Assembly: GCA_028130375.1 (NCBI GenBank)
Contig: GCA_028130375.1_3658.1
DNA length: 64,000 nucleotides
Source of the DNA: a phage
Reading direction: 5' to 3' (one strand)
The position numbers and the translations under genes were made by a program. Below, one piece after another: positions 27,638 through 57,425 of this stretch. Every line of letters begins with the position of its first letter. The first letter of the stretch is position 1. Below the pieces are notes generated by a model that was not told where the DNA came from, ran no database searches, and worked only from the letters and a program-made list of their open reading frames with translations.

Positions 27638-27655
27638 TTTTTAACTGAATTATCA

Positions 27656-27679
27656 AGGGGCTTAGGCCCCTTTCTTTTT
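27656..27679 (+). terminator. intrinsic terminator (GGGGC-TTAG-GCCCC, TTTCTTTTT)
   Basis: Closes the plus-strand arm. Confidence 0.55.
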
Positions 27680-28298
27680 GTCTGCTCTTCCCCCCTACCA
27701 TAAACGGCCCTACCTGGCAAGTGGAATAATTGACGAGCCATCAATCCCACACACTGTACAAATATACATGTAAAATAGCTATTGCATAACCTTTCATTGT
27801 GTGGTAGCGGTGCTATTTTTTACCCGTTTTCCTTCCAAAATTGCACGTAATGCAGTTATTGCACAAAATTTAACCTGATGCACATCTTCAATATCTTGTC
27901 AACAACTAAAAATCTTTATAAGTCATACACTTACACAAACCAAAGAGCGTGTTCTACGTGAAAAATCGAGTATAACTATAGCCGCCAGATCTCAGAATTT
28001 ACGTACGCTCGCCATTCTATAGCCTGCTAAGCATTTATTCCAACCATAGAATAACGGAATAGTCAATACCTGCATAAAATAATTATTCGTGTAAACTGCA
28101 TAACATAAATCAGCTTAGGTGTCAACATTTTTCGTAAACAGTCTGAAATTATCACGGTGAGTTATCATAAACAGAGAAATCTTTAGTCGTCTAATGTTTA
28201 CTGTACGTTACTATACTAACTGAAATCATTAGATGACTAATAGAAAGATAAGAAATAATTAACAATACAATTATTTTATCTGTAACAATAAGGCAACT

Positions 28299-28531
28299 AT
28301 GCAAACGAATGGCATGGCGCGACGGAGTCGCGACATAATATAAAAGCAGTAACCATCACCCCCGTGATAGTTTGTCTGCAAACTATTAATCAGATCATAG
28401 TTGCCTTGTATTTAGTTAATCATGACATAACAAGCAAGGCAACTATAGATCTTCTAATAGTTGCCCTGCTTTTATATTATGTCATAGATTATTAACTTGC
28501 TAATAGTTATCATGCAAACGAATGGCATGGC
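28299..28531. repeat. 20-bp direct repeat pair (ATGCAAACGAATGGCATGGC) flanking GGCAACTAT palindromes
   Basis: Exact copies at 28299-28318 and 28512-28531; AAGGCAACTATAG..CTAATAGTTGCCCT inverted repeats between them. Confidence 0.6.
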
Positions 28532-28544
28532 TTATCATTTCCAT

Positions 28545-28620
28545 GTAAACTGTCAAGGTGTAAACTATCCAGGCGTAAACAGTCTATGCGGGAACAATCT
28601 ATACGTGAACAGTGAAACAT
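28545..28620. repeat. iteron-like array (5 x GTAAAC(A/T)(A/G)TC-like units, about 15-bp period)
   Basis: GTAAACTGTCA, GTAAACTATCC, GTAAACAGTCT, GGAACAATCT, GTGAACAGTG in tandem. Confidence 0.55.
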
Positions 28621-29159
28621 GAAATAATAACAGTCGTTATTGTTCCATATTGTGTCATAGTATGTCACCATTATGTCTAAAGTGTCTAAGGTGTCAGACA
28701 AGTTTTTCTCCTCTTTGTCAAGTGCTGCATGAAAAATTTACAATCTTGTATGGTAGCATTTTTGCGGCCATGTTTACATTCAGCGATGTATGTATAAGCC
28801 TTGTTGTGTGGGCGTTTAGACGTCTAGACGGTTGGAAGTCCACAGGTCAATATCTAATCTATCGGCTGCTAACTATATCCCACACAAATAGTAATAAATA
28901 TAATTGTTATATGCGTAAACAGTAACTCATGTTATCAATCCCTGTATGTATCGCCAGTGGTGCGCATAATGGGTATTATGTTAAATTGCCCGTAATGATA
29001 ACAGTTCTCACAATGATAGGTATTCTCATTCATCCACACAAAATAGGTTGCAAATGTTGTGCCACTGTGTGAACGGCCTGGCCTATTAATTTCTCTCACT
29101 GCCTCGATATTTGAGAATTGTTATAAGAATGAGAAGTATTCCCATTCCGTCCGCCTGGC

Positions 29160-29470
29160 AGCGCTCCTGTAGGTCCTGCAAGGACTCTAGCTGAAAGCTA
29201 GACCCTTCGGGCCTCCCTGTAGGTCAGGTCAAAATCGTGGCAGAACTGAGCCTGTTCAGATATTTCTGGCTGACTCTTCAGGTCTGTGTGGGAAAAGCCA
29301 ACCTCTCCGGCGGGGCAGGGGGAGGTCAATTAAAAAATTTACGTGGTGTATGAAGCGCTCTTCAGGTAAGGCAGGTATTATGGGATGAAACCCTCTTCAG
29401 GCAATGATATTTGTGGGTGTGATATTTGCTGGAAAGCCAGATATGACGGGACTCCCGGCGGGGCAGGGGT
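29160..29470. repeat. degenerate repeat cluster (CCGGCGGGGCAGGGG x2, CTCTTCAGG x3, CCTGTAGGTC x2)
   Basis: Exact 15-mers at 29306-29320 and 29454-29468 plus short recurring words; no convincing ORF. Confidence 0.5.
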
Positions 29471-30165
29471 AGTACAGACAGGGAAAATATGAGAATGTAG
29501 TTGGGGAAATTGATCAGACAGGTAGAGTATGGAATATGTTACAAGTATGTTAAATATGGAGGTTGAATATCTGTAGGATTTGTGTGTAAAATCAAAGACT
29601 TAAGGGGTGTTGTGGTATTTTCTATAAATAATTCAAGTTTAATAGGCAATATTTGTCTCTATCCGCTTTGTGTGGTAAACAGATTCAGATTAGATTGGTT
29701 TACAAGTGTATACATAATATACAAATTAAAGATACAAGAAACCCCCCTCCCCCCTTCGGCTACCATTCACCTTTTCCTCTGACTGGTACTTAAACACTTA
29801 TTCAGACTCTTCAGGTTATCACCCATATATCATATGGCAGTGACTGGTGTCCTCCGGCCCCTCTTTCGTCACCCGTCCGCTTCGCCATGCTAATGCCATA
29901 GCTAATGGTTCGGTTGTTCACCCTGTTCACTCAGGTGTATCTCTATACCCCTTCAAACCGAAGAGAACAGAAAACCCGAATTACTCGGTAAAAGAAAAGA
30001 GAAGAACTTAATTTTATCAGGATAGGCAAGAATGTCAAGGCATGACTGCTCACTAAACAAGCAAACAGTCATGTGTGGGAGGTAAGTGATTGTGGTGGTA
30101 GGAAATTTAGTTGAAAGATGTGTTATAGGTGCTTCCAGCACTTTAGCCGGGCAGCTAATTGTGTG

Positions 30166-48311: not shown

Positions 48312-49400
48312 TTAAAACTCCCAAATTTCTTCTTCAGCGTCGTTAACAGTTGTGTTGACGCGGTAGTCAGTGTTCGACATTTCTTGGTTCGCCGTCTGTT
48401 GTAATGAAGGTTTCATCCACACCTGCATAAACGGTAGCGGGTCCTTTGTTGGCGGCACAAAGTCTTTGTCGATGTCGTAGTAATCATAAATCGGTGAGCA
48501 GTTATAGTCAACCCACTCTTTAAGCAACGGTGAGTTAAGACCTATAATCGCTCTTCCTTCGCTGAAAATATAGTCACTCCAACCGTACTCTTTGGTTCGT
48601 ACTTCATCAAGAATCTCTTTTAACTCCCCCTTTATCTCAAGGAAGCTTTTCTCCCATGCGGGATCATTAAGCAAGATATCAATGATGGCAAAATCACCTT
48701 TCGAATGTAGCATTTCGTCAAGCATGATTTTTTGAACAAGCTGCGCCACCTGAACAAAGATACCCTGTTCAGCTACTGCGAAAGTGCATGCAAAACTTGC
48801 AATAAACTCAATACTTTCCAGAGCTAAAAGCGCAAAAAGCGCTCTAAGAATGCATTTCCGCACAATATCTTCTTCAACACTAGAAGGATCCAGGCGGTAT
48901 TTTGCACCAATAACCTCAAGCTCTTGCATGTATTTGACAATAACGCCGGATCTGCTCAGAACGTTTTGGTTTTCCTGAATCTCTTCTATAATCTCACGGG
49001 CATTGGGGAGGCATTGTCTAACAATCTCTGAGTAAGTTAGTGCGTGAAGAACTTCAATCTCTGACTGTTTCATCAATAGAGTGAAAAGCTCACTATTAGT
49101 GATGAATGGTGAAAAGAGGCAGATGATCGATCTTGCCGCAACGCTATCAGCCTCCCATTGCCACATCAAGGTCTGCACCATCACGTCATAAGTTGACTTT
49201 GAGCATGTTACAAAATCTGAAATAGATTGCGACAAATCCACTTCATCCTCTGCCCAATCTTGCTCTTTTTGTTTTTTGTATAGTTCAAACAGTTGTGGAT
49301 ATTTTTTGTTGATAGAGTCGTACATACCCATTTGCTGTCCCAGAAACAGCGGATAGTCACCAGTTTTATGAGCGGTGTTCTCAGCATTAAATACAGCCAT
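48312..49400 (-). CDS. nrdB: ribonucleotide reductase small subunit (class Ia)
   Basis: Ferritin-like ORF next to nrdA; ATG 49400 (MAVFNAEN..) behind GAGGTAGA chosen over the upstream start at 49460 that overlaps nrdA. Confidence 0.8.
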   Translation of the reverse strand: MAVFNAENTAHKTGDYPLFLGQQMGMYDSINKKYPQLFELYKKQKEQDWAEDEVDLSQSISDFVTCSKSTYDVMVQTLMWQWEADSVAARSIICLFSPFITNSELFTLLMKQSEIEVLHALTYSEIVRQCLPNAREIIEEIQENQNVLSRSGVIVKYMQELEVIGAKYRLDPSSVEEDIVRKCILRALFALLALESIEFIASFACTFAVAEQGIFVQVAQLVQKIMLDEMLHSKGDFAIIDILLNDPAWEKSFLEIKGELKEILDEVRTKEYGWSDYIFSEGRAIIGLNSPLLKEWVDYNCSPIYDYYDIDKDFVPPTKDPLPFMQVWMKPSLQQTANQEMSNTDYRVNTTVNDAEEEIWEF

Positions 49401-49438: not shown

Positions 49439-51754
49439 TTATAGTGCACAGCTTTCGCAATACGGATCTTCAACTGAACTATCTGCAATCAAAGGATAGT
49501 TCTTTCTGGTTTCATCTTCAGCCTGTTTCTTGGCATGAAGTTCCTCTGCCAAGGAGTCACCAGCACCAACCCTAGAGTTTAAATAATACCATGTCTTCAT
49601 CCCGAATTTAGTGGCACGGATAAGGTACCCTAACTGCTCCTTCATTGAAATTTTACCATCTTTCAACTTGGTGTAGTCTATGTATAAATCCGCGCTGATT
49701 GCCTGACCTGTGAATTTTTGAATCACGGCATACATATCGATCATGTCGTTAGTATCAACGTCCCAAGCCGAGGTGTAATACTCTTTCAACTCATCATAGT
49801 CAGGAACGATAAACAGCACCTGCCCTTGTGGCGACTTTTTAAAGATAATGTGCTCACGGACAGGATAAACCCCGTTAGTGGTGTTTGTTGCCAGCGAAGA
49901 GCTTTCATTAGGCATATATGCTTCAAGAACGCTATTACGTAGCCCACCATTCTCAATGATTTCTTTACGTAACCCTTCCCAATCCTGTTTAAGAGAAGGA
50001 TCTTTCACCACGCTATCGACCTCTTTGTTATAGGTGTCGATTGGTAACCAACCTTCTGGATATTTTGTTTTATGCATCCACTCGCAGACACCACGCTCTT
50101 TTGCCAACCGTAAACTTGCCTTATGCAAGCTGTAGCTGTGAAGTTCTGCAAGATCGTGAACGAGCTGTTTACTTTCAGGAGACCCGTAAGTAACCTTGTG
50201 GCTGGCAATAAAATGTGCAACATTGGTAAGGCCAACCCCGATGGATCTGCGTTTTTTAACTGTGCTTTCCATATTTTCATACGGATATGTCATGATTTCC
50301 ATAACATTGTCAATCATAAGCACCGTATAGTATGCAACATCCTCATACTCCTCTGGAGTAACCCTCCCAGCTACAAGAGATGACAGGAAGCACAATGCAA
50401 CCTCTCCATCATCAGCATCGTACTTGAAGATATTACGCATATCTGAATAGCCTTTTGTCGGGAGGGCTATTTCTGCACACAGGTTGCTTGAATAGATCAC
50501 ATCTTTAAAAGGTGTATGTCTATTCATCTCATCTGTCCAGTATACGTACAGCCTTCCCACCTCAGTGCGCTGCGTGATCAGTTCAACAGCAAGATCTCTA
50601 GCTCGGATCCATGTTTTAGGAATACTGTCATCTTTAGCAATACGATCAACCTCTGCATCAAACTCCTCCATAGACATGGTGAAGATACCCTCATGCAGTT
50701 GAGGCGCGTGCTTATAAGAAACAAGCATCCAATCTAAATTCTTAGCCACACGGTTGATAAACGACCTATTAATACCGATGGAGTAGTCCATGGTGTTGAT
50801 TCTTTTTGAAGCAACAGTCATAGGGTTTCTCAAACGGATTAGCTCATCAATCTGCGGGTCCAGTGCAAGGAATGATACTGTTGCAGAACCACCACGTGAT
50901 TGTTGTCTGTTCTCCTTAACCCCAGCATCAATACCTCGATAATATGGAATCTTACCCATATGTTTAATAGTGTTACCACGAACACCATCGCCTGCAGATC
51001 TTGAGGATAAGTAGTAGCCGATACCTGCTTGGTTAACCGTCATTGTGTACGCAACTTCACGTGCCACACCAATAGATTTTGCTGTATCGTCAGCTTTTAT
51101 TACACAACAAGATGCATACCCTGTCTTACCTGTGCGCAGCCCGTTTAAGTACGGTGTTGGGGCATTGATCTTTAAGTCGGACAGATAAGTGTACAATTTT
51201 ACAACATCGTTGATACGACGTTCTTTCGGCATATTCTTCATGACAGCCATTGCTATCCCCATAAACATCATCTGGGGAGATTCAAACAAGGTGTCTTTAA
51301 GAGTATCCTTGATCCCGTATTTGTCGCGAAACTGTTTAAGGACTGCATAGCCATAACCGAGATCTTTACTGTGGTCAATAACAGCGTCTAAAGTGTTTAG
51401 CTCGGTAAAGCTATAACCCATATCCTCCCAATAACCTTTCTCAACCATGTCATTGTAAAATGATGGTAAGGAAGGGATCTTTGTAAACCCTCCAAAAGCC
51501 TCTTTATAGATCTGACCAATAAGAACACGACCAGCCATACGGGAATGTGCTTCGTCTTTACGGCTAACACAAGAGTCTATAATAGCTTGGTTAACTTCTT
51601 TGGTTGTACATCCATCATACAACCGCTTGTAGGCATCCAGTGCAATATGTGACCAATTGCCGTTACCATCGTCACCGAAAATAGCTGCCTTATTTAAACG
51701 TTCTGGATCGAATGCCACTTCACATCCGTTGCTTTTAATTACCTTGGTGATCAA
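49439..51754 (-). CDS. nrdA: ribonucleotide reductase large subunit (class Ia)
   Basis: 771 aa; N-terminal ATP-cone-like ..KVIKSNGCEVAFDPERL..; C-terminal ..CESCAL redox tail. Confidence 0.9.
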   Translation of the reverse strand: MITKVIKSNGCEVAFDPERLNKAAIFGDDGNGNWSHIALDAYKRLYDGCTTKEVNQAIIDSCVSRKDEAHSRMAGRVLIGQIYKEAFGGFTKIPSLPSFYNDMVEKGYWEDMGYSFTELNTLDAVIDHSKDLGYGYAVLKQFRDKYGIKDTLKDTLFESPQMMFMGIAMAVMKNMPKERRINDVVKLYTYLSDLKINAPTPYLNGLRTGKTGYASCCVIKADDTAKSIGVAREVAYTMTVNQAGIGYYLSSRSAGDGVRGNTIKHMGKIPYYRGIDAGVKENRQQSRGGSATVSFLALDPQIDELIRLRNPMTVASKRINTMDYSIGINRSFINRVAKNLDWMLVSYKHAPQLHEGIFTMSMEEFDAEVDRIAKDDSIPKTWIRARDLAVELITQRTEVGRLYVYWTDEMNRHTPFKDVIYSSNLCAEIALPTKGYSDMRNIFKYDADDGEVALCFLSSLVAGRVTPEEYEDVAYYTVLMIDNVMEIMTYPYENMESTVKKRRSIGVGLTNVAHFIASHKVTYGSPESKQLVHDLAELHSYSLHKASLRLAKERGVCEWMHKTKYPEGWLPIDTYNKEVDSVVKDPSLKQDWEGLRKEIIENGGLRNSVLEAYMPNESSSLATNTTNGVYPVREHIIFKKSPQGQVLFIVPDYDELKEYYTSAWDVDTNDMIDMYAVIQKFTGQAISADLYIDYTKLKDGKISMKEQLGYLIRATKFGMKTWYYLNSRVGAGDSLAEELHAKKQAEDETRKNYPLIADSSVEDPYCESCAL

Positions 51755-51991: not shown

Positions 51992-52465
51992 TTAGCTTTC
52001 AATACCGAATAATTTTTCCAGGCGATGCAGATCTTCAAAATTGAAAGGTTCATCAACAATATGAATATCTTCAGCCTTTTCAGATTGTTTTGTATACTTT
52101 CTTACATTAACACGATCCTCTACAGGGATATCATACGGGAGATCTTGAACAAGCATTGCCTCACCAGGTGCTTTATCTACATCTAAAATATCTACACCGT
52201 TATACATTTGTGGGTATCTAAAGTCTGCACGCATGACACCAGCAAATACATCTGCCTTTCGATAATGTGTTGGCTTATTTTTGCATCGAACGTTTTTTCC
52301 ACGAAGAACATCAATACTTTTTAAATCAAACCCTACGGCAAAGAGTGCAGCTCGGAGACCGTTTCGTGTGCGAACGTTAAACCCGGGGACGGTAGATAGA
52401 AAATCTAAAGTAACTGAAATAAATGTCTTTTTAGGAATCATAACATTACTCATATCTGTCTCCAT
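51992..52465 (-). CDS. hypothetical protein
   Basis: Start moved to ATG 52465 (SD GGTGAG) because a promoter -10 box abuts the track start at 52492. Confidence 0.4.
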   Translation of the reverse strand: METDMSNVMIPKKTFISVTLDFLSTVPGFNVRTRNGLRAALFAVGFDLKSIDVLRGKNVRCKNKPTHYRKADVFAGVMRADFRYPQMYNGVDILDVDKAPGEAMLVQDLPYDIPVEDRVNVRKYTKQSEKAEDIHIVDEPFNFEDLHRLEKLFGIES

Positions 52466-52493
52466 TTCTGGCTCACCAACAAAGTGAGCCATT

Positions 52494-52522
52494 ATTATAG
52501 ATTATCTAATACTATTAGTCAA
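52494..52522 (-). promoter_or_regulatory. sigma70-like promoter on minus strand (TTGACT-17-TATAAT)
   Basis: AGTCAA at 52517-52522 and ATTATA at 52494-52499 on the plus strand. Confidence 0.5.
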
Positions 52523-52551
52523 CACAAAAGTTACCTATCGCTGTGATAGGA

Positions 52552-53535
52552 TTAACCTTTCACGAAGTGGTTATTAAGCAGTTGTCTGTGCTGAACCCAC
52601 CCACAAAAGTTGGCAGACCAGAATTTACCATCACGGTCTTGATGGGTTACACCTTCCTGCCAAGTACTGATGTCTTGTGTGATTTCACATGAAGACAGGT
52701 AGTAGTTTAAACGTTCCATTGCGTTATCGTGATCCATAGGTGTTGCCTGGTGCTCGTAAGGGCTTGCATGAATACGATCCCCACCAATCAATTTTTTAGC
52801 CACACTATCTGCCTTTTCAAACGTGCTGTCAATATTTCGATAAGATACTTGTGCACAGCAACTAGCACTGATAGACAGAGCTTCTTTAGTATCGAGAATG
52901 CAGAGCTTTCCTTCTGTGTCACGTACAGCGTAGTTAAACTCTCCGTCCAAATAAACGTGCTCTACATATGGGGTGTGCCATTGACCCGGTTTAAGGATTT
53001 CAGGAGTGCTATTCTCAAGAGCCTCCCACATACAATTAGCTAACATCTGAATCGTAGGATCCGCATCGTGCCAGCAACGGAGGTGGAAAAAATTATTCCA
53101 CTCGGTGCTTGTTACAACTGTTTTCATGCGCTGGAACGGCTCCACTAAGCGGTTACATACTTGCTTATGGTAACCAGCAAGGGCGAACTTCTCTGCATGC
53201 CAAGCGGCGTTTTTTGCAGCTTCTTTCCAAAACTCTTCAGGAGTTAGCTCCATGTCAGTGTACTCTACACGGATCTTTTGATCGTGTTCCCCACCATCTT
53301 CCATTCCTCGCTTATTTACACCGAAGCGAACTGGCATTGCCGGATTCTCCACAATCTGTTGCAGCATCTTGCCGACAGGTACTGCACGGGAAGACATGGC
53401 GTTTCGGCTGAACACTCGGTGCGTCATAAGCTCTGAGTGAATAATTCGAGGATACTCTAGTTCAAAAGTGGTGATACGCTTACCTTTCTCGGAAATGCTG
53501 TCAGCAATAATCTTTGCAGTGCACAGTTTTAGCAT
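52552..53535 (-). CDS. ThyX-like (flavin-dependent thymidylate synthase family) protein, divergent
   Basis: 327 aa; ..TTFELEYPRIIHSELMTHRVFSRNAMSSRA.. aligns by eye with the ThyX core ..[30 protein letters not shown].. but RHR is THR and SxRY is SSRA. Confidence 0.45.
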   Translation of the reverse strand: MLKLCTAKIIADSISEKGKRITTFELEYPRIIHSELMTHRVFSRNAMSSRAVPVGKMLQQIVENPAMPVRFGVNKRGMEDGGEHDQKIRVEYTDMELTPEEFWKEAAKNAAWHAEKFALAGYHKQVCNRLVEPFQRMKTVVTSTEWNNFFHLRCWHDADPTIQMLANCMWEALENSTPEILKPGQWHTPYVEHVYLDGEFNYAVRDTEGKLCILDTKEALSISASCCAQVSYRNIDSTFEKADSVAKKLIGGDRIHASPYEHQATPMDHDNAMERLNYYLSSCEITQDISTWQEGVTHQDRDGKFWSANFCGWVQHRQLLNNHFVKG

Positions 53536-53735
53536 TATTTAGCTCTCCTTGTTTTAATTTTGGAAATTTCGTCTGGGTTTATGTTGGCCTTAAATGCAAG
53601 GTATCTGTTGAACATGTCAGAGCACATATCTTGGGTGATCCTAGAGGCATACACTAGCTTACCTCCTAGATCATACACCTCTAGCCAGTCACCGTATCTG
53701 ACTACAGGATCGCCACCTTTAGAACATCTGCCCAT
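53535..53735 (-). CDS. hypothetical protein
   Basis: 66 aa ORF. Confidence 0.45.
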   Translation of the reverse strand: MGRCSKGGDPVVRYGDWLEVYDLGGKLVYASRITQDMCSDMFNRYLAFKANINPDEISKIKTRRAK

Positions 53736-53736
53736 T

Positions 53737-54330
53737 TCAAATACCTTCTAAAAATTTTCCTATTTTATACCAGCTATTAGCGGTATAGTCAACACTGACC
53801 TTTAACTCCTCGAATTGCTCATAAGGCGTATCTTTTAGGATTTTAATAACTTCAGGTCGTGAAGCGAATTGGTTCAGGTATTCATGCCTGTCGTCAATTA
53901 TAACATCTACAGCCACATTCCCTTTGAAATGTGTGGCGTAGAAGCCGTGGCCCTGGGTGTGATCGTCCAGATCCATAAAATCACTGGTCCAACGCTTTAA
54001 GAACCTTGATTTAGATGCAAGGTGACCTTTCTTGCATACCGAGATAAATGCAAGCTTGTGACCACGAGCCACCAAATCTTTCATAACCTCAATAGCCCCC
54101 TCTTCAGGCTTAAGGAAGTCGTAGAGGAACGGATCACTCCAGAAATCAAAAGGTCCTATGATGTTTTCTTTGGGACGATCAGGCCAATACTTTGACAGAT
54201 CGTAATACATTAACCCATTAGAAGGTTTAGCTACTGTCTTACTGGCTGGACCATACAAACGCTCCAACCACTCCCACCATGCTGTTCCTGAATCTACCAG
54301 TGTCAGATCTACATCAATTCCGATTAACAT
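53737..54330 (-). CDS. HAD-superfamily hydrolase, putative 5'(3')-deoxyribonucleotidase
   Basis: 197 aa; N-terminal MLIGIDVDLTLVD (DxDxT motif I). Confidence 0.55.
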   Translation of the reverse strand: MLIGIDVDLTLVDSGTAWWEWLERLYGPASKTVAKPSNGLMYYDLSKYWPDRPKENIIGPFDFWSDPFLYDFLKPEEGAIEVMKDLVARGHKLAFISVCKKGHLASKSRFLKRWTSDFMDLDDHTQGHGFYATHFKGNVAVDVIIDDRHEYLNQFASRPEVIKILKDTPYEQFEELKVSVDYTANSWYKIGKFLEGI

Positions 54331-54938
54331 TCTTCTTGGGCCTCTTTAGCATCAATATACTTGCACACAATCTCCGATGCACACTCCCAAGGTGCACCTT
54401 CAGGGTTTACAACATCAAACTCAACCCCTTTTATTCCGTTCTTTTCCAGACTTAGATAGGTTCTGGAATCATTTCCCCAGTCATATCCTACACGGTGAAT
54501 ACGGAACAACAACAGATCTCCACCTGTGCTGTATGCGTACTCGCTAAGGCATGCCAGCTCCTCTTTGAATCCCCCATCGGAGTAAACAATAACCCCTTTA
54601 CCTTCAGGGAAATCTTTCTTCAAAGATGCGACTGCGGCTTTACCGAAAGCATCTTCACCAAAGATAGGTTTAATCAGATTTTCACTACAATGGATCATCC
54701 ATTCTCGCGGAGAAACATGCTTGCCGTCTATCATTAAGAAAGGGCAAGGCTCTTCTTTGTAGTGGCGGTCATAAAGTGCATTCCAGAGTTGAGGAGTTAC
54801 ACCAGCTGCCTTAATTGCCACACTGAAGAGCATTTCCTTAACCTCACGGTGGTGTGAGTTAGGAATAGCTTCCAACAAGAGATCTGCAATGTGATCCTTA
54901 CCACTGCTGGGTGGGGCGTTAAGAACAATAATATCCAT
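54324..54938 (-). CDS. deoxynucleoside monophosphate kinase (T4 gp1-like)
   Basis: 204 aa; N-terminal P-loop MDIIVLNAPPSSGKDHIADLL resembles T4 dNMP kinase MKLIFLSGVKRSGKDTTADFI. Confidence 0.65.
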   Translation of the reverse strand: MDIIVLNAPPSSGKDHIADLLLEAIPNSHHREVKEMLFSVAIKAAGVTPQLWNALYDRHYKEEPCPFLMIDGKHVSPREWMIHCSENLIKPIFGEDAFGKAAVASLKKDFPEGKGVIVYSDGGFKEELACLSEYAYSTGGDLLLFRIHRVGYDWGNDSRTYLSLEKNGIKGVEFDVVNPEGAPWECASEIVCKYIDAKEAQEEC

Positions 54939-55141
54939 TAAAAACCTCCGTGGTATTCTTCAACTGCATCAATAATACTTTTACACTTATCTACCAGCTC
55001 GTTAGCCACTACAGCATCGTCTTCCCAAACAGCCTCCTCAATCTGATCAAGCAATGATCGCATCTTACTCATCATTTCTGGGATAAAGTTTTCTGAAAAG
55101 CTGTCTGGAATTGTTAACTCTAGTGTCATTTCGGTCTCCAA
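54938..55141 (-). CDS. hypothetical acidic protein
   Basis: 67 aa ORF. Confidence 0.45.
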   Translation of the reverse strand: METEMTLELTIPDSFSENFIPEMMSKMRSLLDQIEEAVWEDDAVVANELVDKCKSIIDAVEEYHGGF

Positions 55142-55156
55142 TCATACTATGCGTTA

Positions 55157-55615
55157 TTAGAAGTTTGTTTTTACACGTCCCTTCTCATCAACCTCGTTGT
55201 TAGCTAAAAGCGTTACAAAGTCTGTGAAACGAACATGAAGAACCCTTTTCTTATCAAGGTATCCTAAAGCCACCCCTGAGAAATTTAGCATCAAAGGGGC
55301 TAAAGAAGCTCTGGCACTGAAATGCTGTTGTTCTACCCTTCCAACACCCTTAGTGTAGGATGGGTTAAGATTGTAAGTTCTGAATCCCAGTTTTGTTGGA
55401 GCTTTAGAATTAAAAACGACTTTATAGCGTTTCTTACTCAACTTATGCTCCAGGATAAGCATTCCCTTATCACCTTTGATAAGTTGAAAATCTGTAAAGT
55501 GCTCTTTTAAGACGAAAGGTAGTGCCAGTCCCATCGCCTGTCCTCTTTGTACCGCTGTCTCACCAAAAGCTTTTGCATCAGTAAGTTCTTTGGTCAAGTC
55601 TATGCTTTTGATCAT
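55157..55615 (-). CDS. hypothetical protein
   Basis: 152 aa ORF. Confidence 0.5.
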   Translation of the reverse strand: MIKSIDLTKELTDAKAFGETAVQRGQAMGLALPFVLKEHFTDFQLIKGDKGMLILEHKLSKKRYKVVFNSKAPTKLGFRTYNLNPSYTKGVGRVEQQHFSARASLAPLMLNFSGVALGYLDKKRVLHVRFTDFVTLLANNEVDEKGRVKTNF

Positions 55616-56396
55616 ACCTGGTCTCCAAAATGTATTGTAGTTCTTTCTTGCCTATACTCTTCATTCCAGCAGTCTTACCTGCTTCTTCTTGAAAAGAAGA
55701 ATAGCATTCAGCAAACACTCTGTCAACACCGTTAACTAAAGATTTTATGAAATATGTTGATTCTTCAGATTTTGGGTCATCATCCCCCAATACTTTTCCA
55801 GCATTATACCCAACACGTCTTACACAGAAGTCGTAGTCATCTGGTGTGCTAAAAGAAAATAACTTATTCTCTCCAATCTCTACAGGATCCCTATTGCACG
55901 CCTTTTTCTCCCAAATTTGGAAAACACATGGCACGTCATAAGGTTTGCCATTAAGTAAAAACGAATTCTTAGGGCACCTTTCGCTGTAGACAAGGTGCAT
56001 CGACATGTCCAGTTTGTTTGCAAAAAATATTTTTTCAAATGTCCGTGGCAAGATGAAGGCTATAGCCCCTCCAAGCTCTAGCAATGATGCACAATGGTTA
56101 AAGAATTTGCAAGCTAAGGATGAATTCTTGCCAAATGGTGGGTTACCTATGAAGACATCTGCCTTGGGATGCACCTCCAAGAAGTTTGCCTGAATGCACG
56201 GTGTTGGTCCTTCAAATTCAGGATCTGGTACTAAATCGTACGACAGTATCTCTGAAAATAGTTTTGAAAAAGAACCCCTTCCAGCAGAAGGCTCAACGTA
56301 TGCACAATTCCCATACTTATCTTTTACTTTACCAACAAGATATTCTGCATACTCAGGGTTTGTGTAGTATTTGTCGTTGGACTCTTTCTTGCTCAA
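55578..56396 (-). CDS. DNA N6-adenine methyltransferase, gamma-class (motif I then NPPF)
   Basis: ..YVEPSAGRGSF.. (motif I) then ..FIGNPPFGKN.. (motif IV); no in-frame ATG near the 5' end, TTG at 56396 behind GGAGG proposed. Confidence 0.6.
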   Translation of the reverse strand: MSKKESNDKYYTNPEYAEYLVGKVKDKYGNCAYVEPSAGRGSFSKLFSEILSYDLVPDPEFEGPTPCIQANFLEVHPKADVFIGNPPFGKNSSLACKFFNHCASLLELGGAIAFILPRTFEKIFFANKLDMSMHLVYSERCPKNSFLLNGKPYDVPCVFQIWEKKACNRDPVEIGENKLFSFSTPDDYDFCVRRVGYNAGKVLGDDDPKSEESTYFIKSLVNGVDRVFAECYSSFQEEAGKTAGMKSIGKKELQYILETRYDQKHRLDQRTY

Positions 56397-56409
56397 AGTG
56401 CCTCCAAAA

Positions 56410-56433
56410 GGAAAAGGGAGGCGCAAGCCTCCC
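56410..56433 (-). terminator. intrinsic terminator (minus strand; GGGAGGC-loop-GCCTCCC)
   Basis: Hairpin 56416-56433 with T-tract on the minus strand, after the exonuclease gene. Confidence 0.5.
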
Positions 56434-56441
56434 TATAATTG

Positions 56442-57425
56442 TTAGATTATCTGAATCAGGGTATTTTTCATTTCTTCTCTGGTGCGGATGTTGTTACGGT
56501 CACGAACAACAGATCCACAACCTTCGCAGCGATATGTTTTAAATGCACTCAGTTGAGTATACGCCAAAGCTTCTTCCTCGTGAAGGTGTTCTCCACCACA
56601 GCGTGGGCAACGAACTTTTGGCTCCTCATCCTGGTAGTACAATGACATGTTGGGGTGCTGCTTAGCAAACGGGCGAGCCAGCAAATACAGGCCTTCCAGA
56701 GATAGGATATCGCCAACATTGTACTCCCGCATCTGTTTAAACGCCTCAAGATCACCGTGAACACACTTGATCCACATTTCAAATGTGTGGTCAATCAGTT
56801 TCTGTCGGGCAAGTTGGAAGTATTTGCATGCATACTCCAAAGTGTTTGCATTCAAACGGAATGCCTTCTTGATCATTTTAAGGGTGTCAACCTCTTTGTA
56901 GGGGCTTGTTGGAGGCAATCCGTGAAATGCAAATCGTTGGTTGGCCCACCCACAGTCAAAACCTGAATTGTGGGCTACTGCGACATCACATTTATCCAGA
57001 TAATACCACAAATCCTGAATCAATTCGAGATCATTGTGAATATCCTCATCCCACATTTTGTAATCAGGAAGAGCGCAGTCAACCACACTAGGACTGTCTA
57101 ACCACTTACCTGCGAAAGTTAGCATGTAGGGCATAATTTCAATACCGCAGGTTTGAATGTTGGTCTTATAGTGCCCAAAGAACCAGCCGTTTGTTGGAGA
57201 TGTCTCTGTATCATACACCCAAACTTTAGCACCTTTGTGCTCTTCAAGGAAGCGCTCCGTTGCTTCTCCTACAATCTCTGACATATTCTCTTGTGCACGT
57301 TTAAGCTGTAGTCGGATCCAGCTCTCACGTGACTCACGGCCTAAAAATTCACGAGCAATTTGTCTATTAGTGTATCCCTGTTGCTTTAGTGTTAAAATTT
57401 GCTCAAGAGTTAACTTTGTCATCAT
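56442..57425 (-). CDS. DEDD-family 3'-5' exonuclease with N-terminal HTH-like region and C-terminal zinc ribbon
   Basis: 327 aa; Exo I ..VWVYDTETSP.., Exo II ..VAHNSGFDCGW..; ..CPRCGG..CEGCG.. Confidence 0.6.
   Translation of the reverse strand: MMTKLTLEQILTLKQQGYTNRQIAREFLGRESRESWIRLQLKRAQENMSEIVGEATERFLEEHKGAKVWVYDTETSPTNGWFFGHYKTNIQTCGIEIMPYMLTFAGKWLDSPSVVDCALPDYKMWDEDIHNDLELIQDLWYYLDKCDVAVAHNSGFDCGWANQRFAFHGLPPTSPYKEVDTLKMIKKAFRLNANTLEYACKYFQLARQKLIDHTFEMWIKCVHGDLEAFKQMREYNVGDILSLEGLYLLARPFAKQHPNMSLYYQDEEPKVRCPRCGGEHLHEEEALAYTQLSAFKTYRCEGCGSVVRDRNNIRTREEMKNTLIQII

Follow-up and report, generated by a model that had tools for sequence, protein, structure and literature searches.

A probable nucleotide-supply gene cluster of an rV5-like coliphage encodes a ThyX homologue with an apparently permuted segment order and an altered motif

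In canonical ThyX, as represented by T. maritima TM0449, M. tuberculosis ThyX and PBCV-1 A674R (PF02511, TIGR02170), a helix carrying S30 and H53 comes first and is followed by the motif R78-H-R-x-x-S-x-N-E-x-S88-x-R90-Y91, by R147 and by R174. The ThyX homologue PolB, which acts in polyoxin biosynthesis, is collinear with ThyX. With respect to gene context, phage T5 has canonical DNA, yet combines a deoxynucleoside monophosphate (dNMP) kinase, a 5'-deoxyribonucleotidase, a thymidylate synthase and ribonucleotide reductase (RNR), and the gp1 kinase of T4 phosphorylates hydroxymethyl-dCMP (hm-dCMP) and also dTMP and dGMP. The window analyzed here is a stretch of 64,000 nucleotides of phage DNA (contig GCA_028130375.1_3658.1) that encodes, on the minus strand between positions 52552 and 54938, a ThyX homologue of 327 amino acids (aa), a nucleotidase of the HAD type and a kinase similar to T4 gp1. 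An earlier note on this DNA had seen in these three genes a possible non-canonical nucleotide pathway, compatible with synthesis of a modified pyrimidine rather than plain dTMP. We find that it is the enzyme architecture that is unusual and not the pathway: the cluster looks like ordinary phage deoxynucleoside triphosphate (dNTP) supply, as which it is already annotated in rV5-like genomes, and the ThyX homologue appears to belong to a very large subfamily with rearranged segment order. The four open reading frames (ORFs) of the cluster are the following.

52552-53535, minus strand: rearranged ThyX homologue, 327 aa (PHROG thymidylate synthase, E 5e-113; Pfam Thy1; fold)
53535-53735, minus strand: 66-aa ORF between the HAD and ThyX genes (phrog_4903, E 5.6e-35, no assigned function; hypothetical in related genomes)
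53737-54330, minus strand: NT5C-type HAD 5'(3')-deoxyribonucleotidase, 197 aa (PF06941; phrog_420, E 6e-47)
54324-54938, minus strand: T4 gp1-like dNMP kinase, 204 aa (phrog_139, E 4.4e-44; fold match 1DEK)

The 327-aa protein was recognized as ThyX by its fold, with profile matches of uneven strength. Besides the PHROG match, it scored 38.1 bits against Pfam Thy1 (gathering score 24.8), with only profile positions 60–191 covered. BLAST with canonical ThyX fails to detect it, and phmmer against PDB sequences gave no useful match for any of the three proteins. The AlphaFold model has a predicted local distance difference test (pLDDT) value of 79.8 and a predicted template modelling score (pTM) of 0.81, with pLDDT below 55 around residues 231–260. 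When it was searched against the PDB with Foldseek, all 50 of the 50 matches listed were ThyX or PolB, and PolB of Streptomyces cacaoi (a UMP/dUMP C5-methylase, 4P5A) was among the best. Sequential structure aligners cover merely 125–170 residues of templates of about 180–245 residues, because the order of the segments has changed. The by-eye alignment with the ThyX core in the earlier note is thus borne out, and profile alignment gave no placement in an unrelated family. The statement that the protein is longer than typical ThyX holds as far as its about 100 additional residues are concerned, but these do not form a simple extension; they go with a non-collinear rearrangement plus insertions at residues 53–100 and 179–214 and a C-terminal tail with an invariant R317.

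The order of the recognizable elements in the 327-aa protein is the altered motif (residues 38–51), R129, R153 and then S231 and H256–H262, which is not the canonical collinear order. The helix segment with the equivalents of S30, H53, E58 and H59 follows the RHR-type motif at a distance of about 200 residues, whereas in canonical ThyX it is found about 25 residues upstream of it. Its most recognizable part is the following.

52750-52770, minus strand: relocated motif H256-A-S-P-Y-E-H262, corresponding to canonical H53-E-T-P-F-E-H59

In the family alignment this element reads H256-A-S-P-[YF]-E-H262 and, preceded by (C)AQVS231YR, matches the H53 motif and the S30 helix of T. maritima. A HMMER profile of 29 close homologues compared with the PDB gave pieces that were all below threshold and were used solely for their order; they were swapped, with residues 223–268 aligned to T. 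maritima 32–75, residues 21–50 to 73–102 and residues 127–175 to 165–213. For hhalign, a family profile of 133 representatives (37–52% identity to the query) was compared with an alignment of T. maritima ThyX and six canonical phage ThyX from GenBank. Against the single-copy canonical alignment two pieces were obtained, one of residues 13–200 with T. maritima 53–215 (score 51.4, probability 91%) and one of residues 212–327, the reliable part of which pairs residues 212–266 with T. maritima 9–65 (score 43.6, probability 80%); a smaller profile also aligned residues 212–266 to 9–65 in hhalign. Against a tandem-duplicated canonical alignment a single collinear match spanned residues 13–327 (score 77.0, probability 96.5%, E 9e-10). 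Because the duplicated template gives one collinear alignment with a score of 77, as opposed to 51 and 44 for the separate pieces, the 327-aa protein appears to be a circular-permutation-type rearrangement of the ThyX fold. In the model, the N-terminal hairpin strands 6–15 and 20–29 have no helices between them, while canonical ThyX carries helices 1–2 at this place. The most plausible route to such an arrangement is tandem duplication followed by differential loss. It was also considered whether the C-terminal W-x-Q-x-R317 tail corresponds, in a second ThyX copy, to the RHR helix or to the R174 helix, but the alignment was too weak to decide and neither assignment was retained.

It could be argued that the swapped order is an artefact of weak alignment, and that the protein keeps the collinear ThyX order and has a long, unrelated extension at its C terminus. 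The individual pieces are indeed modest (E about 1e-5 to 1e-6), and the confidence of the model is low around residues 231–260. On the other hand, there is no H-x-[ST]-P-x-E-H motif or S30-type helix upstream of THR, where residues 6–29 form a simple beta hairpin; the C-terminal HASPYEH after (C)AQVSYR is invariant in the family and was aligned to T. maritima 21–59 by two independent methods; and duplication of the template lifts the score as described. We therefore regard an artefact as highly improbable.

The second peculiarity of the protein is its motif. The earlier note had read THR for RHR and SSRA for SxRY, and both readings, T38-H39-R40 and S48-S49-R50-A51, are confirmed by the translation.

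53383-53424, minus strand: altered ThyX motif T38-H-R-V-F-S-R-N-A-M-S-S-R-A51, at the place of the canonical motif given above

The strict ThyX motif R-H-R-x7-S-x-R-Y is accordingly absent, while the histidine, the second arginine, the serine and the last arginine are retained. T. maritima residues were mapped onto the protein by the HMMER and hhalign alignments and counted over the 133 representatives, with the following result.

H79 to H39: 133/133
R80 to R40: 109/133
N85 to N45: 125/133
S88 to S48: 132/133
R90 to R50: 133/133
R147 to R129: 132/133
N169 to N148: 132/133
R174 to R153: 133/133
S30 to S231: 133/133
H53 to H256: 133/133
E58 to E261: 126/133
H59 to H262: 132/133
R78 to T38: 129/133
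E86 to A46: Ala in 75/133, Ser in 36/133
Y91 to A51: 133/133

The equivalents of the dUMP-binding residues (R80, S88, R90, R147, R174) and of the flavin/folate residues (S30, H53) are thus kept in 109–133 of the 133 representatives. Each of the four arginines that contact dUMP at the uracil carbonyls and the phosphate is found in at least 109 of 133, and three of the four are invariant or nearly so. E86, which has been replaced, touches the flavin by its main chain only (PMC11940539). New invariant positions have appeared in the rearranged family, i.e., G77-M78, H187-x-P189 (in WHxPY) and R317. The altered motif is a fixed feature of the whole family at mechanistically important residues and not a peculiarity of the present phage. 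Some family members of 520–650 aa carry inteins, and these interrupt the T-H-R/(C)FSRN, SS/SRA and H-(A)/SPFEH motifs exactly; inteins typically sit at active sites, and their positions fit the THR, SSRA and HASPFEH motifs being active-site elements. Separately, K-H-Q stands in place of R-H-R in the canonical, collinear ThyX of Salmonella phage SE131, Escherichia phage IME267 and Vibrio phage IME271, all with S-R-R-Y kept, so that not every annotated phage ThyX has the RHR triplet. A switch to dCMP was considered for E35, which aligns with T. maritima Q75, by analogy with the Asn to Asp change in ThyA-type hydroxymethylases; it was rejected because the uracil-binding arginines are conserved and the ThyX of M. 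tuberculosis also has Glu there.

The rearranged family is large. An exhaustive profile search retrieved 5,492 clusters at 50% identity (E <=0.001), 3,336 of them at E <=1e-30, and tblastn located rearranged ThyX in 1,036 phage records. Carriers include rV5-, phAPEC8- and phi92-like phages, Vibrio phage ICP1, Pseudomonas Pakpunavirus and relatives, N4-like phages of Escherichia, Erwinia, Achromobacter and Ruegeria, Caulobacter phiCbK-like phages and phages of Flavobacterium and Cellulophaga. Canonical collinear ThyX was found in 2,682 phage records, and the most frequent organism names differ from those of the rearranged type. Both phi92 gp078 and rV5 gp106 (PMC3606486) are of the rearranged type. 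N4 gp30 is cited as a homologue of the thyX of roseophages, and the assignment of N4 to the family rests on this citation alone (PMC2784036); the N4-like roseophages pair thyX with a dCMP deaminase (PMC2784036). No kinase or HAD gene is annotated near rearranged ThyX in the loci of ICP1, Pakpunavirus K8, Acinetobacter phage Ab15, an Edwardsiella phage or the N4-like IME11. The neighbours include RNR in K8 and the Edwardsiella phage, and dCTP deaminase in IME11. In the complete IME11 genome dCTP deaminase and rearranged ThyX are the only annotated nucleotide-metabolism genes, and no phage dNMP kinase is annotated. A literature search found no description of a permuted ThyX (coverage was incomplete and no priority is claimed), and rearranged ThyX is apparently an undescribed topology variant.

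We consider it likely that the genes form an ordinary phage dNTP-supply operon, in which a member of this rearranged, motif-altered subfamily makes dTMP. The ThyX homologue would methylate dUMP reductively, in a flavin-dependent reaction, to ordinary dTMP, the gp1-like kinase would convert dNMPs to dNDPs, and the NT5C nucleotidase would trim or balance the dNMP pools. Gene identities, fold, non-collinear alignment, residue conservation and phyletic spread were observed directly, and we infer that the enzyme depends on flavin, acts on dUMP and yields dTMP. That the arginines contacting the uracil carbonyls in T. maritima structures have been kept points to a uracil rather than a cytosine nucleotide as substrate. 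The dCTP and dCMP deaminases found as partners make dUMP precursors. As no phage kinase is annotated in IME11, the product of its ThyX would have to pass the host thymidylate kinase, which fits dTMP. The 327-aa ORF is also the only thymidylate-synthase-like gene, since tblastn with ThyA and canonical ThyX gave no match and a single thymidylate synthase is annotated. The combination of kinase, nucleotidase and thymidylate synthase is not diagnostic, because T5 has the same set together with canonical DNA and T4 gp1 accepts dTMP and dGMP.

Several observations weigh against this assignment. The protein scored 39.5 bits against the NCBIfam equivalog model for thyX (TIGR02170), for which the cut-off is 87.9. 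Two of the substituted positions are described as mechanistically important in T. maritima ThyX: Tyr91 and Ser88 have been termed strictly conserved, Tyr91 mutants show an about 1000-fold slower flavin oxidation (PMC11940539), Tyr91 is the proposed general acid for loss of the carbinolamine hydroxyl (PMC11940539), and Arg78 faces N1/C2=O of FADH- and stabilizes FADH- in T. maritima ThyX (PMC11940539). As the equivalents of both Tyr91 and Arg78 are lost, the chemistry of rearranged ThyX should not simply be assumed to be that of canonical ThyX. In the literature no assay of any rearranged member and no nucleoside analysis of Vequintavirus DNA were found. It is conceivable that the ThyX homologue has another function, i.e., that its substrate is UMP, as for PolB, or an RNA uridine, or that it is a non-catalytic nucleotide-binding subunit, with dTMP supplied by the host ThyA. 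The place of PolB among the best structural matches, the missed equivalog threshold, the loss of Y91 and R78 and the new invariants G77-M78, WHxPY and R317 all agree with such a function, and a phage gene of this kind need not be essential since E. coli has thyA. However, strong purifying selection on all positions that contact dUMP or flavin is hard to square with an inactive protein, the inteins sit within motifs of the dUMP and flavin sites, linkage to RNR and to dCTP/dCMP deaminases feeding the dUMP pool is consistent, and no RNA-binding domain is evident. Another function is therefore unlikely in our view, and production of dTMP remains the preferred assignment.

The genomic setting agrees with this assignment. 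The 4.5-kb segment around the cluster (positions 52000–56500) is 99.9% identical to Escherichia phage rV5_ev147 and matches 123 phage records, mostly of rV5-like coliphages, 107 of the 123 at >=95% identity and 118 with >=80% coverage; the window is therefore part of the genome of a Vequintavirus, an rV5-like E. coli myophage. Twenty of the GenBank records that match this coliphage segment are titled 'Campylobacter phage', and C. jejuni is the stated host in 18 of them. The two listed, C15 and A12a, are 98.4% identical to the segment; the host label looks doubtful. According to the annotation of the 99.4% identical Escherichia phage RudolfGeigy, the cluster lies within a long minus-strand array of replication and nucleotide-metabolism genes, in the order methyltransferase-like gene, two small ORFs, gp1-like dNMP kinase, NT5C-type HAD, 66-aa ORF, ThyX homologue, two small ORFs, NrdA, NrdB, glutaredoxin and NrdD/G. 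The earlier note had described a three-gene cluster, and the ORFs were found as it gave them, with the 66-aa ORF between the ThyX and HAD genes. From their PHROG E values (5e-113, 6e-47 and 4e-44) and the conservation of the segment in phage records the three ORFs can be taken as real genes rather than chance ORFs. The end of the kinase gene and the beginning of the HAD gene overlap by 7 nt, and the stop of the 66-aa ORF shares one base with the ThyX start; that these genes abut or overlap suggests that the kinase, the HAD protein, the product of the 66-aa ORF and the ThyX homologue are expressed as a single unit. The same order is seen in phi92, where a 187-aa gene annotated 'thymidine kinase', a predicted 5'(3')-deoxyribonucleotidase, the ThyX homologue and two small genes precede NrdA, and KpS8 has genes of matching size in these places. 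Further features of the array are the following.

48312-49400, minus strand: NrdB, class Ia ribonucleotide reductase beta (ORF and annotation of the 99.4% identical genome)
49439-51754, minus strand: NrdA, class Ia ribonucleotide reductase alpha (ORF and annotation of the 99.4% identical genome)
51992-52492, minus strand: 166-aa gene directly downstream of ThyX (phrog_5557, E 8e-75; syntenic in KpS8 and phi92)
52494-52522: promoter-like TTGACT-17-TATAAT, near-consensus (11/12), just past the ThyX stop and just upstream of the 166-aa gene
55578-56396, minus strand: putative N6-adenine DNA methyltransferase with NPPF motif (phrog_5172, E 4e-129; weak DNA methyltransferase PHROG matches; annotation)
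56415-56434: terminator-like hairpin upstream of the methyltransferase-like gene, which is the first gene after the hairpin

Promoter-like sites are no commoner than expected by chance (21 found, 21.4 expected). A small gene directly after rearranged ThyX was always present, and it is homologous within rV5, KpS8 and phi92 (phrog_5557, phrog_15711), the 166-aa gene having as homologues KpS8_135 (E 6e-48) and phi92 gp077 (E 2.6e-7), each at the same position. In K8 and Ab15 the small downstream gene belongs to phrog_3506, which is labelled 'thymidylate synthase' though its members are 114–129 aa long; this may be a ThyX partner or a mislabel. A conserved ThyX partner was considered for the small gene as such and was rejected, as detectable homology is limited to rV5, KpS8 and phi92, with phrog_3506 in K8 and Ab15 and other genes in ICP1 and IME11.

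The identities that had been proposed for the two other enzymes were upheld. The 204-aa protein has a P-loop NAPPSSGKD (G13, K14), SDGGF at 120–124 and NDSR at 156–159, and its AlphaFold2 model has a pLDDT of 91.4. The top PDB fold match of this model is 1DEK, the T4 gp1 dNMP kinase, whose chains A and B take the first two places (E 5.6e-6, TMq 0.60), ahead of adenylate kinases and other P-loop kinases. By sequence, there is the phrog_139 'deoxynucleoside monophosphate kinase' match listed above, but no match in Pfam, NCBIfam or PDB sequences. The kinase family is small, with 79 homologous clusters, its longest contigs are about 130–150 kb and its named members are Vequintavirinae-type phages; the P-loop (G13, K14), SDGGF and DSR are invariant. 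The 197-aa protein passes the NT5C profile PF06941 narrowly (27.1 bits, gathering score 24.8). Its HAD motif I, DVDLT at residues 6–10 (D6, D8, T10), is an intact DxDxT, and motif IV is IIDDR at 144–148 (D146, D147). Its positional counterpart in phi92, gp079, carries the annotation of a predicted 5'(3')-deoxyribonucleotidase.

Together the three enzymes could in principle make a modified pyrimidine. The ThyX homologue would transfer the methylene without reduction, to give e.g., 5-hydroxymethyl-dUMP, the kinase would phosphorylate this product, the HAD protein would remove competing dTMP and the virion DNA would contain a thymine analogue. Replacement of the Tyr91 and Arg78 equivalents throughout the family would agree with altered chemistry, and the three genes are adjacent and co-oriented in rV5, KpS8 and phi92. 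The chemistry is plausible, as T4 gp1 takes a modified nucleotide, phages that replace thymine encode dTMP nucleotidases and acid quench of ThyX reactions traps 5-hydroxymethyl-dUMP. The proposal found no support, however, in the comparisons made here. The ThyX type is widespread and, as far as the five loci named above show, stands in most lineages without an annotated kinase or HAD nearby, often beside a dCTP or dCMP deaminase; its dUMP-binding arginines are kept, and the kinase family is confined to the rV5-like phage group, whereas the motif changes are family-wide. A tblastn search with E. coli ThyA for a ThyA-family hydroxymethylase gave no match better than E 1.6 in the window and 133 kb of the 99.4% identical genome. 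The annotation of RudolfGeigy, a full Vequintavirus genome with 231 features, lists no dUTPase, dCTPase, dTTPase, dCMP deaminase or ThyA-type enzyme and no glycosyl- or aminoacyl-transferase acting on DNA, and thus, at the level of the annotation and with hypothetical proteins not all searched, neither an excluding nor a hydroxymethylating nor a base-decorating enzyme. The annotation does hold RNR Ia, RNR III and its activase, glutaredoxin and one thymidylate synthase. Vequintavirinae are reported to be 'exceptionally susceptible' to restriction–modification (RM) systems, from which the BASEL authors infer that there is no effective protection (PMC8594841), and a pulsed-field gel electrophoresis figure shows rV5 DNA cut with XbaI (PMC3606486). 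RudolfGeigy does encode putative DNA methyltransferases, four N6-adenine enzymes and one Dcm-like C5 enzyme, despite the high restriction sensitivity reported for the group; the array itself starts with a putative N6-adenine methyltransferase. DNA with 5-hydroxymethyluracil (hmU) is, however, still cut by many restriction enzymes, so that sensitivity to restriction says little against a small modification of thymine. Taken together, a modified pyrimidine seems to us quite improbable, clearly more so than a different function of the ThyX homologue, and ordinary dTMP supply is the explanation followed below.

Elsewhere in the window, a region of about 2.5 kb (positions 27640–30160) contains few, short and mostly non-ATG ORFs (62–91 aa) at the place where plus- and minus-strand genes meet and the cumulative GC skew peaks. 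Within it, repeats of ATAGTTGCC(T/C)TG, present in both orientations, are found at positions 28283–28515, and a perfect direct repeat of 20 nt is found at 28299 and 28512. Since the repeats look iteron-like, the region may serve as a replication origin, as a terminus or in regulation. Neither tRNA genes nor Rfam families at gathering threshold were found in the 64-kb window; in RudolfGeigy the tRNA cluster is located beyond the stretch matching the window.

If the rearranged proteins are active thymidylate synthases, the mechanistic proposals for ThyX, with Tyr91 as general acid and Arg78 as stabilizer of FADH-, need an alternative solution in this family. Activity would also have a bearing on the design of ThyX inhibitors and on annotation rules, the latter because the NCBIfam equivalog model misses the rearranged family. 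Were the modified-pyrimidine proposal true, with the kinase and the nucleotidase of Vequintavirinae channelling a C5-substituted dUMP into DNA, a replacement of thymine would have been overlooked in coliphages that are very common.

Compared with described systems, the cluster resembles the T5 module in its functional enzyme set, which in T5 goes with unmodified DNA. It differs in that T5 uses ThyA with DHFR and an unrelated nucleotidase, while rearranged ThyX is found here and no DHFR is annotated. The kinase and T4 gp1 (1DEK) both have a P-loop ending in SGKD and a context of phage nucleotide metabolism, but they share only 16% identity, differ in length (241 aa in T4, 204 aa here) and have no Pfam model in common. 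In T4, gp1 serves an hm-dCMP pathway that also requires gp42, gp56 and glucosyltransferases, none of which is present here. The nucleotidase is like the NT5C-family cdN/mdN and phage NT5C-like proteins in passing the Pfam threshold and in its intact HAD motifs I and IV; its score is marginal, and nothing marks it as a dTMP-specific exclusion enzyme. Unlike PolB, the rV5-type ThyX has no secondary-metabolite context. With canonical ThyX it shares the fold core, the H-R...S-x-R part of the motif and the equivalents of R147, R174, N169, S30, H53, E58 and H59, and like canonical ThyX it is the sole thymidylate-synthase-like gene and adjoins RNR. It differs from canonical ThyX in the substitution of Thr for R78, of Ala or Ser for E86 and of Ala for Y91, and in that the H53 helix segment, which precedes the core in canonical ThyX, trails it in the 327-aa protein.

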